64,000 nucleotides of DNA from positions 20,265 through 84,264 of the forward strand of contig VMEM01000002.1 in the NCBI GenBank assembly GCA_007375535.1, written 5' to 3'. Under the pieces are notes generated by a model. The model was not told where the DNA came from, did not search any database, and was given only the letters and a program-made list of their open reading frames with translations. Each line of letters begins with the position of its first letter. The first letter of the stretch is position 1. This DNA is from Parcubacteria group bacterium LiPW_41 (lineage in GTDB: Bacteria > Patescibacteriota > Minisyncoccia > UBA6257 > GWB1-50-10). Positions 37,660-39,391 of the stretch are shown here, one piece after another. Both the position numbers and the translations under genes were made by a program.

Positions 37660-39150
37660 CTTTATTGGAGGATTTGATCCTGGTCCAGGATGAACGCTGG
37701 CGGCGTGGATAAGGCATGCAAGTCGAACGGTTTTTTATTACTTAGCAATAAGTAGTAAAAGATAGTGGCGAACGAGTTAGTAACACCTTGGTACATACCC
37801 CGAAGTTGAGCATAGCTCACCGAAAGGTGAGGTAATTCTCGATATTCCCGCAAGGGCAAAGTCGCAAGACGCTTTGGGATTGGCCTAGGCCCGATCAGCT
37901 AGTTGGTGAGGTAATTGCTCACCAAGGCTACGACCGGTAGGGGAGCTGAGAGGCTATTCCCCAACGACGCAACTGAGACACGGTGCGTACTCCTACGGGA
38001 GGCAGCAGTCGAGAATATTCCACAATGGGCGAAAGCCTGATGGAGCGACGCCGCGTGCAGGATGAAGGTCTTAGGATTGTAAACTGCTTTTAAATGGGAA
38101 GAAGCTACATTAGTAGTGTGACGGTACCATTGGAATAAGGGGCGGCAAACTTCGTGCCAGCAGCCGCGGTAATACGAAGGCCCCAAGCGTTATCCGGATT
38201 TATTGGGCGTAAAGGGCGCGTAGGCGGCTCGGTGCGTCTTATGTTAAATCTCACCGCTCAACGGTGAAATCGCATAAGATACGACCAAGCTTGAGAGTGT
38301 TAGAGGTAGAAGGAACTTATGGTGTAGGGGTGACATCCGTTGATATCATAGGGAACACCGAAGGCGAAGGCATTCTACTGGGACATTTCTGACGCTGAGG
38401 CGCGAAAGCGTGGGGAGCAAAAAGGATTAGATACCCTTGTAGTCCACGCCCTAAACGATGATCACTAGCTGTCTCGAGTATCGACCCTCGGGGTGGCGAA
38501 GCTAACGCGTTAAGTGATCCGCCTGGGAAGTACGGCCGCAAGGCTAAAACTCAAAGGAATAGACGGGGACTCGCACAAGCGGTGGAGCATGTGGTTTAAT
38601 TCGACGGTAAACGAGAAACCTTACCAAGGCTTGAAATTCAAACGAAAGGTGTCCGAAAGGATATCCCTCTCACAAGGACGTTTGGACAGGTGCTGCATGG
38701 TTGCCGTCAGCTCGTGTCGTGAGACGTTCCCTTAAGTGGGGTAACGAGCGCAACCCCTGCCCTGTGTTATATGTGTCACAGGGGACTGCCATCTTATAGA
38801 TGGAGGAAGGCGGGGACGACGTCAAATCAGCATGGCCCTCTGACGCCTTGGGCTACACACATGCTACAATGGTAGATACAACGGGTTGCCAAGCTGCAAA
38901 GCGGAGCCAATCCTTCAAAATCTACCCCAGTTCAGATTGAGGGCTGCAACTCGCCCTCATGAAGTAGGAATCGCTAGTAATCGCGGATCAGCAGGCCGCG
39001 GTGAATACGTTCTCGAGTCCTGTACTCACTGCCCGTCACGTCAAGGAAGCTGGGACTGCCTGAAGTTTCGTGAAGGAATCAGGGTAAGCTCGGTGACATG
39101 GACGAAGTCGTAACAAGGCACGGGTAGCGGAAGCTGCTCGTGGATTAATT
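37660..39150 (+). rRNA. 16S ribosomal RNA, unlinked (no 23S/5S downstream)
   Basis: The 5' end reads GGAGGATTTGATCCTGGTCCAGGATGAACGCTGGCGGCGTG. Conserved blocks GTGCCAGCAGCCGCGGTAATAC, TGTACTCACTGCCCGTCA and GAAGTCGTAACAAGG are present. The 3' end is ...GCGGAAGCUGCUCGUGGAUUAAUUACAC, lacking the canonical CACCUCCUUA. Confidence 0.9.
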
Positions 39151-39391
39151 ACACTTAAGTCGTAAAAAACTTTAATTTTTTAAAATGATGTGTATAACAG
39201 TTCGCTGTACGCGATCAATCGAGTAATCGAGGAAATCAACGCAGAAGGAATGATGCATACTATCGAGAGGTGTTAGCCGATAAACCTCAAATATGTCTCG
39301 GCTACGAATATGGTAAATGTCTAATTGGTTTATTATGTTCGGTGGGACGACCAAGAAAGTACTTGAAATGAATTTATTTTTATCTTTAATA

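Follow-up and report, generated by a model that had tools for sequence, protein, structure and literature searches.

The 16S rRNA gene in a 64,000-nt stretch of the genome of Parcubacteria group bacterium LiPW_41, a groundwater organism with a small genome (GenBank assembly GCA_007375535.1, contig VMEM01000002.1, positions 20,265 to 84,264 of the forward strand; this whole stretch is the window, and its numbering is used throughout) ends in an A/U-rich sequence at the place of the anti-Shine-Dalgarno (anti-SD) core CCUCC. Pairing between the anti-SD and the Shine-Dalgarno (SD) sequence is the textbook means of start-codon recognition in bacteria. The window 16S is very probably a functional, single-unit gene of the Parcubacteria (GTDB class Paceibacteria), part of the candidate phyla radiation (CPR), in which an A/U-rich tail replaces CCUCC and genes have SD-free starts. 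The window 16S belongs to the published anti-SD-less group of Parcubacteria, so the core finding, loss of the anti-SD in a subgroup of this lineage, is already known; the relevant article reports CCUCCU in just 48% of Parcubacteria and an overlap between the lineages without it and the group that lacks uL1 (Tsurumaki et al., 2022, RNA 28:1041; PMC9297842). What is added here is the anatomy of one locus, together with a conserved replacement tail, a leaderless promoter architecture, a trailer pseudoknot, and a minority of SD-bearing orphan genes, which were not found in the literature compared.

The gene occupies positions 37662-39155 of the + strand (1494 nt) and matches the Rfam small-subunit (SSU) rRNA model RF00177 over its full length and without insertions (1428.9 bits, model positions 1-1533), the alignment being unbroken to position 1533. 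Helix 45 is intact at 39119-39142 (+), with a 10-bp stem and a GGAA loop, CACGGGUAGC-GGAA-GCUGCUCGUG, and every pair is standard when set against helix 45 of the model. Directly 3' of this helix an Rfam scan of 38900-39500 finds GGAUUAAUUACACU, where the model consensus is GGAUcACCUCCUUu; the last eleven positions of the model, UcACCUCCUUu, are UUAAUUACACU in the window 16S. The non-canonical tail of 13 nt, GAUUAAUUACACU (39143-39155, +), replaces canonical GAUCACCUCCUUA with changes at 7 of 13 positions, turns the CCUCC core into AUUAC, and leaves no anti-SD. The RF00177 alignment thereby confirms the original prediction of a 16S 3' end that lacks the canonical anti-SD next to an intact helix 45, and the gene is, like those of the Parcubacteria subgroup, a bona fide SSU rRNA with helix 45 and a CCUCC(U)-free tail.

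Related loci (numbered with the prefix L) were collected by scanning an 18-mer from the 16S decoding region, GTACTCACTGCCCGTCAC, which carries the changes A1396U and C1400U, against one genome per species; the scan returned 81 loci, mostly 16S genes of CPR/Patescibacteria. Over its whole length the window 16S shares 99.5% identity with that of L032 (JBAZZD010000007.1, 'Candidatus Paceibacterota bacterium'); the value is 97.2% for L007 and 96-99.5% for the metagenome contigs L084 and L088. In these four separate assemblies or samples helix 45 is followed by exactly GAUUAAUUACACUUAAGUCGUA; the 13-nt tail is identical to that of the window, and the trailer likewise. Between 5039 and 5138 of L032 lies a 100-N scaffold gap flanked by duplicated copies of the 16S 3' end and trailer, a scaffolding artefact of this public metagenome-assembled genome (MAG); both copies have the same tail.

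The 16S gene forms a transcription unit of its own. A σ70-type promoter, TTGACT-16 nt-TATAAT (37332-37359, +), matches the consensus at 11 of 12 positions, and its aligned position is also occupied by a promoter in L032 and in L057. The leader (37551-37571, +) and the trailer (39344-39364, +; conserved as GGGACRACYAAGAAAG in relatives) pair over 21 consecutive bp (-33 kcal/mol), and relatives keep this stem through changes on both strands, e.g., CUUGG/CCAAG to UUUAG/CUAAG; it is the classical pre-16S processing stem and presumably an RNase III substrate. The intrinsic terminator of the unit, predicted earlier at about 39392-39428, is real: it spans 39395-39431 (+), its hairpin stem (~39392-39427) is followed by UUUUUGUUU, and the segment 39380-39436 folds at -26.8 kcal/mol (z=-6.9). 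Rfam finds no 23S or 5S gene in the 64-kb window, which bears out what had been noted and is ordinary for the group: in 0 of 16 related loci checked, with canonical and non-canonical tails alike, does a 23S gene adjoin the 16S, and L087 alone of the 16 has one, about 10 kb away. Stand-alone 16S units are thus the norm in the group, and unlinked rRNA genes are known for Patescibacteria (bioRxiv 10.1101/705046).

With these features, the altered tail can no longer to any real extent be put down to an error of assembly or sequencing, or to a pseudogene in decay. The gap with duplicated flanks behind the L032 16S does show that assemblers have trouble in this region; the identity of tail and trailer in four separate assemblies effectively refutes an artefact, and the anti-SD-less state is inherited across the clade. 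A point sequencing error had already been judged incapable of producing the tail, and the independent assemblies extend that judgement to artefacts in general. Against a pseudogene stand the full-length model match, the intact helices, the near-consensus promoter, the co-varying processing stem, and the terminator.

The wider clade shows the same or related tails, as the comparison with 16S genes of related CPR lineages proposed alongside the original prediction makes clear. Among about 60 related 16S 3' ends that share A1396U/C1400U, 10 have the canonical GAUCACCUCCUUU, 13 are near-canonical (CCUCA or UCUCC), and the rest are without CCUCC; more than half of the ~60 lack it. The nearest labelled relatives of the window 16S are MAGs of Jorgensenbacteria, Liptonbacteria, and Nealsonbacteria; the 99.5% identity to JBAZZD010000007.1 puts the gene within the Parcubacteria/Paceibacteria, with finer placement resting on candidate-phylum labels. 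In the NCBI taxonomy Paceibacterota is now a synonym of the whole CPR phylum. The decoding-centre strand used for the scan lies at 39022-39039 (GUACUCACUGCCCGUCAC, with A1396U and C1400U relative to the bacterial consensus), and U921A at 38558-38568 (AAUAGACGG) restores the 921-1396 pair. This signature is common to CPR 16S genes with canonical and with non-canonical tails, and it would defeat primers of the 1391R/1406R type.

The largest anti-SD-less class, GAUC-AAUUA(A/C)A, has AAUU at tail positions 6-9 and comprises 33 loci with 25 distinct sequences of helix 45 plus tail; in a quick neighbour-joining tree of low resolution (~360 columns) it falls mostly into one cluster that includes the window. 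Across the 25 distinct sequences, positions 1-15 past helix 45 are kept and conservation collapses to noise from position 16. Positions 9-15, outside the class definition, read A (0.92), A/C (0.76), A (0.92), C/U, U (0.84), U/A, and A (0.68). The consensus of the replacement tail in the lineage is GAUCAAUUAAACU (the tail motif is also written AAUUAAACU), against GAUUAAUUACACU in the window, and GAUYAAUUAMAYU is kept at 13-15 nt, with little change of sequence, in relatives whose 16S identity is as low as ~78-80%. Since the conserved tail is as long as the canonical one, the mature 3' end is predicted to lie at the usual place and the new sequence appears to be itself constrained.

A motif (A)AGUCG(A) stands a few nt past the conserved tail, at 39157-39162 in the window (AAGUCG) and at the equivalent site in L018, L023, L024, L061, L062, L067, L073, and L075; relatives with canonical tails have AGGUCG somewhat further downstream. 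The motif may mark a 3' processing site.

From the tail to the 3' strand of the processing stem the sequence (~190 nt) is mostly variable; the exception is an element at 39266-39304 (+), AGAGGUGUUAGCCGAUAAACCUCAAAUAUGUCUCGGCUA, which fits an H-type pseudoknot with helices S1 (GAGGU/ACCUC) and S2 (AGCCGA/UCGGCU) and a third loop of variable length. Fifteen loci have this ~38-nt element in near-invariant form, 7 of them metagenome contigs that an nhmmer scan brought in, and the scan found it nowhere but in the subclade of the window and those contigs (besides the window: L003, L007, L012, L032, L040, L057, L059, and L082-L088). In all 15 it follows a 16S end without an anti-SD and lies just inside the processing stem. 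The pseudoknot pairing holds in 97.5% of the cells of an 11-sequence alignment (A1), versus 24-52% with slid partners, and two S1 pairs show compensatory change in that alignment. Looser variants occur in L065, which has a canonical tail, and in L049, L013, and L069. An Rfam search of the trailer at E<=10 returned neither an intron nor any other family, and none matched the pseudoknot element itself. The element may be a processing or assembly signal. The S1 helix resembles a built-in SD/anti-SD mini-helix (AAGGU/ACCUU in relatives). The trailer of L084 is longer by ~88 nt.

An alternative raised with the original prediction is that an unseen intron or intervening sequence (IVS) displaces the 3' exon, so that an insertion parts helix 45 from a CCUCC segment, either joined onto the mature rRNA or remaining in association with it. 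The idea is reasonable, given CACCUCCU near helix 45 in the distant relatives L044 and L077. Insertions are frequent in CPR 16S genes, as the Tsurumaki et al. article reports (PMC9297842), and the 16S genes of L084, L040, and L005 measure 1.86-1.92 kb. For the window a displaced 3' exon is very unlikely and finds no support. The SSU-model search suggested as the check for a split 3' exon gave a continuous match and no such exon, the alignment is unbroken by any insertion, and neither group I nor group II introns, nor another family, match at E<=10. The 270 nt from helix 45 to the terminator hold no CCUCC, while conservation runs on continuously from helix 45 for 13-15 nt, which fits the usual mature end. 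Absence of the canonical tail sequence downstream, also claimed earlier, is borne out: GATCACCTCC and ACCTCCTT have zero occurrences in the full 64-kb window, and between 39100 and 39500 there is no CTCC and a single CCTC, in the ACCTC at 39284. That ACCUC, the sole one 3' of the 16S and part of GAUAAACCUC (39280-39288), might be taken for the missing segment; it is one strand of the local S1 helix and becomes ACCUU in relatives in step with the change of its partner from GAGGU to AAGGU, so it is not a displaced anti-SD. A split 3' exon, intron, or IVS in the window was therefore rejected.

In nearly all anti-SD-less relatives the 400 nt downstream are likewise free of CCUCC. Those that differ are L044 and L077, with CACCUCCU 24 nt past helix 45 (24-31 nt), and L018, with sites at +82 (CCUCC) and +89. 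The tails of these three loci are of the AAUUCAAC type, with CACCUCCU shortly downstream, and may represent an intermediate stage: displacement of the anti-SD by an insertion would have come first, and loss of the anti-SD from other parts of the clade later. Insertions lengthen the 16S to 1.86-2.1 kb in close and distant relatives, namely L084 (8874-10734), L040 (1177-3095), L005 (2663-4559), and L061. Two + strand copies of CACCTCCT in the window, neither adjoining rRNA, were also considered as displaced anti-SDs and set aside as unrelated to rRNA: the copy at 10137 lies within a gene on the opposite strand, and that at 26795 is intergenic, in a GC-richer stretch with no significant structure (z=-1.0) and no Rfam match.

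Few genes in the window have an SD. The set consists of 65 non-overlapping open reading frames (ORFs), with starts taken by a crude longest-ORF or first-ATG rule. Pairing with a canonical anti-SD at <=-7 kcal/mol is found for 8 of 60 scored ORFs, and GGAG, GAGG, or AGGA at -20 to -3 for 11 of 60, in agreement with the earlier count, in which about 35 of 40 starts checked had no SD; the anti-SD energy profile upstream of starts has no clear dip at -10. The motif enriched upstream is the -10 box, with a weak excess of AGGAG/GGAGG persisting, which corresponds to the lack of SD enrichment described for anti-SD-less organisms (Amin, 2018).

The promoter boxes provide the main start signal. In 10 of 65 genes the end of a TATAAT-like hexamer lies exactly 6 nt before the start (background ~1 per position), and in 22 genes it lies 3-12 nt before it. 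A hexamer ending 6-8 nt upstream is found at 16 of 47 ATG gene starts (34%) versus 1.8% of the remaining ATGs (37 of 2025; Fisher p=2.5e-15), and the most enriched upstream 5-mers, GGTAT, GGGTA, and TCAGG, are parts of an extended box (G/T)GnTATAAT. Several longest ORFs with GTG or TTG starts have the same box before their first ATG. A -10 hexamer that ends 6-7 nt upstream sets transcription to begin at the A of the ATG, and a box at this distance is the signature of leaderless mRNAs; the window genes with a box ~6-8 nt upstream have this arrangement, their transcription start sites being predicted. Examples are TATAAT at 5440-5445, 6 nt before the ATG at 5452 (5440-5454, +) and inside the 3' end of the upstream gene, and TATAAT at 22939-22944, again 6 nt before the ATG at 22951 (22939-22953, +).

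Many such boxes (e.g., 5440-5445, 19190-19195, 20881-20886, 22939-22944, and 46951-46956) lie inside or right after the 3' end of the preceding gene, with an intergenic gap of just 6-14 nt. Same-strand gaps are <=10 nt in 23 of 52 cases. This layout suggests promoters for individual genes within apparent operons, with coupling or re-initiation probably serving the rest.

The related 8-kb loci point the same way. In the three groups without a perfect CCUCC, 19-21% of genes (77/383) have a box that ends 5-8 nt ahead of the start, versus 6% (3/52) beside canonical tails, a comparison made with first-ATG starts and crude gene calls and uncorrected for phylogeny. Among the comparisons between tail groups, the frequency of the leaderless box alone differed clearly. 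The earlier suggestion that initiation in this organism is largely SD-independent is thus supported by the rarity of SDs, the -10 boxes at ATG codons, and the clade-wide loss of the anti-SD. A literature search yielded no report of leaderless mRNAs in Patescibacteria/CPR, which does not prove that none has been published.

Several points weigh against an SD-free cell with a single type of ribosome. The placing of the mature 3' end and of transcription start sites is a prediction from sequence, the 16S copy count covers a 64-kb part of a larger genome, and gene starts follow the crude rule given above. The handful of perfect AGGAGG sites in the original prediction is present: AGGAGG-4 nt-ATG (63277-63289, +; ATG at 63287) precedes a gene of the histidine phosphatase family, and AGGAG (24130-24134) stands 7 nt before the ATG at 24142. 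Such AGGAGG/AGGAG sites, together with the residual SD excess (AGGAG/GGAGG at -20 to -6, 39 versus ~18 expected among 324 genes pooled from anti-SD-less loci), are unexpected if the cell has no anti-SD at all. SD use is also low beside canonical tails (11.5%), which makes the group comparison weak; across ~60 related 8-kb loci it is low with every tail type under crude start calls, and the comparison has little power. A further site of the textbook SD type lies at 62774-62781 in the window, and L040 has three genes with (A/G)AGGAGG(U) (471-842, 6626-6934, and 6984-7523).

CPR genomes usually have one rRNA copy. A second 16S with a canonical tail elsewhere in the genome, forming a second type of ribosome that serves the perfect-SD genes, would explain the positional peak of SD motifs and the AGGAGG sites of the window, and Alteromonas, according to one survey, keeps two 16S types with different anti-SDs (PMC6107228). 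Such a division of labour is nonetheless very unlikely here: besides the usual single copy, the window holds one 16S, the scan for the 16S signature matched a single contig of the near-identical genome JBAZZD01, and the genes with SDs are mostly orphans, which recent acquisition fits better. Among SD-bearing genes of relatives, 8 of 10 have no Pfam family, versus 5 of 50 proteins of the window. Most simply, SD-bearing genes would be accessory or recently acquired, with SDs that have not yet decayed. An origin of these genes by horizontal transfer was tried as a candidate and not adopted: GC and GC3 of the SD-bearing genes in the window are unremarkable, and the sole hint is that they are mostly orphans.

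The conserved tail could instead be a changed anti-SD, pairing with an A/U-rich motif upstream of starts (complement GUGUAAUUAA; UUUAAUU in relatives). Sequence and length of the tail are kept across deep divergence, a few window genes have GUAAUUAAU-like strings upstream, and anti-SD-less loci, unlike those with canonical tails, show a mild enrichment of TAATT at -20 to -1 (z=2.7 in each of two groups). This enrichment is confounded by -10 boxes, as TATAAT followed by T contains TAATT. Pairing of the tail with the region -22 to -2 does not exceed that with shuffled upstream sequence (z=-1.1), between 58 and 89% of 150 tail permutations equal or beat the real tail (-22 to +21), and no tail-complementary k-mer is enriched in the window. 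Duplexes made of A-U pairs throughout would be very weak, and in a survey of 128 organisms without an anti-SD no matched variant pairs came to light (PMC6107228). A changed anti-SD is accordingly an unlikely account of the tail. As a candidate for a new anti-SD the tail was rejected, as hybridisation profiles, shuffles, permutations, and k-mers show nothing beyond the -10 boxes.

Loss of the anti-SD may be linked to loss of Era, whose KH domain binds GAUCA and CCUCC (PMC10582724); in Paceibacteria der and rplA are missing, and era is absent from most (PMC12641178). A more far-reaching proposal gives the conserved tail a new function, as a docking or assembly signal that replaces Era/anti-SD or as an occupant of the SD-helix pocket; it would act with the trailer pseudoknot in a lineage-specific 3' maturation, the clade would be almost fully leaderless and SD-free, and the AGGAGG orphans would use a route independent of the 16S anti-SD. 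Taken as a whole this proposal is doubtful, with a small chance of holding in full.

Under the preferred reading of a functional gene with an SD-free tail, the anti-SD core CCUCC would have given way long ago to an A/U-rich sequence of equal length, so that the ribosome could no longer use SD pairing to choose start codons. The 16S would be transcribed alone, from promoter to terminator and unlinked from the 23S, and excised by way of the leader/trailer stem, presumably by RNase III. Many genes would be transcribed from their own -10 promoter, often GG- or TG-extended, with the transcript beginning at the AUG, and the resulting leaderless mRNAs would be recognised through their 5'-terminal start codon. 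For the remaining, tightly packed genes we infer an initiation pathway that probably uses A/U-rich unstructured junctions or re-initiation after the upstream stop codon.

The published Parcubacteria subgroup belongs to the same lineage as the window and has likewise lost CCUCCU at the 16S 3' end; the accessible part of that study scores presence or absence of the motif, and does not deal there with the replacement tail, start signals, or leaderless promoters (Tsurumaki et al., 2022). With regard to uL1, no rplA was found among 50 window proteins scanned with Pfam, the window being part of the genome, and the genes flanking rpoBC in the window differ from the usual L11-L1-L10-L12 cluster.

Absence of the anti-SD is rare (128 of 20,648 taxa), and organisms without it are generally without SDs (Amin, 2018; PMC6107228). 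The anti-SD-less bacteria Chryseobacterium, Elizabethkingia, Riemerella, Blattabacterium, some Mycoplasma, and Candidatus Carsonella (Lim et al., 2012; Amin, 2018; PMC6107228) resemble the window in having an intact helix 45, a tail without CCUCCU, no SDs, and no compensating SD/anti-SD pair, but they are unrelated lineages with independent losses. Unlike them, the clade of the window has a replacement tail that is conserved over deep divergence within the clade, and its main start signal is a promoter box at leaderless distance. Mammalian mitochondria, whose SSU rRNA has no anti-SD (PMC10582724), are similar in their leaderless or near-leaderless mRNAs and reduced ribosome; they differ as organelles with a handful of mRNAs and dedicated factors, whereas here a free genome has hundreds of genes and σ70-type promoters.

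In the Bacteroidota the anti-SD is retained but sequestered by bS21, bS18, and bS6. Most of their genes lack an SD and have A/U-rich upstream regions, as here; CCUCC is retained there and gone here, and leaderless promoters are not a hallmark of that phylum. Initiation of the Bacteroidota type, with an anti-SD retained and unused, was rejected for the window because its 16S has no anti-SD. Mycobacterium tuberculosis is reportedly rich in leaderless mRNAs, a finding attributed to Cortes and colleagues in 2013, and Deinococcus is another leaderless-rich bacterium. Both share with the window the -10 box ~6-7 nt before the start codon and transcripts that begin with AUG (predicted transcripts in the window), but both have a canonical anti-SD and SDs for their leadered genes, whereas the SD route here appears closed.

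A large and abundant environmental clade without an anti-SD would show that leaderless and other SD-free initiation by itself suffices for a bacterium. Gene finders and start prediction based on ribosome-binding sites will mis-call starts in such genomes, annotation of 16S 3' ends that relies on CCUCC will fail, and expression tools for the CPR should avoid dependence on SDs.

Elsewhere in the window, upstream of the trigger-factor gene, lies an intergenic region of 390 nt with notable features at 26482-26672 and 26735-26815. A long-range inverted repeat of 19 bp in this region, AAGAAUCCACUCUUUUAUAC ... GUAUAAAAGAGUGGAUUCU, encloses a bidirectional terminator-like hairpin. A GC-richer stretch of the same region carries CACCUCCUCC; it has no Rfam match, and its fold is not significant (z=-1.0). 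The ORF at 14812-15321 encodes an RNA-recognition motif of the eukaryote type, RRM_1 (Pfam E=1e-18); its longest form starts with TTG, and the first ATG lies 62 codons in.

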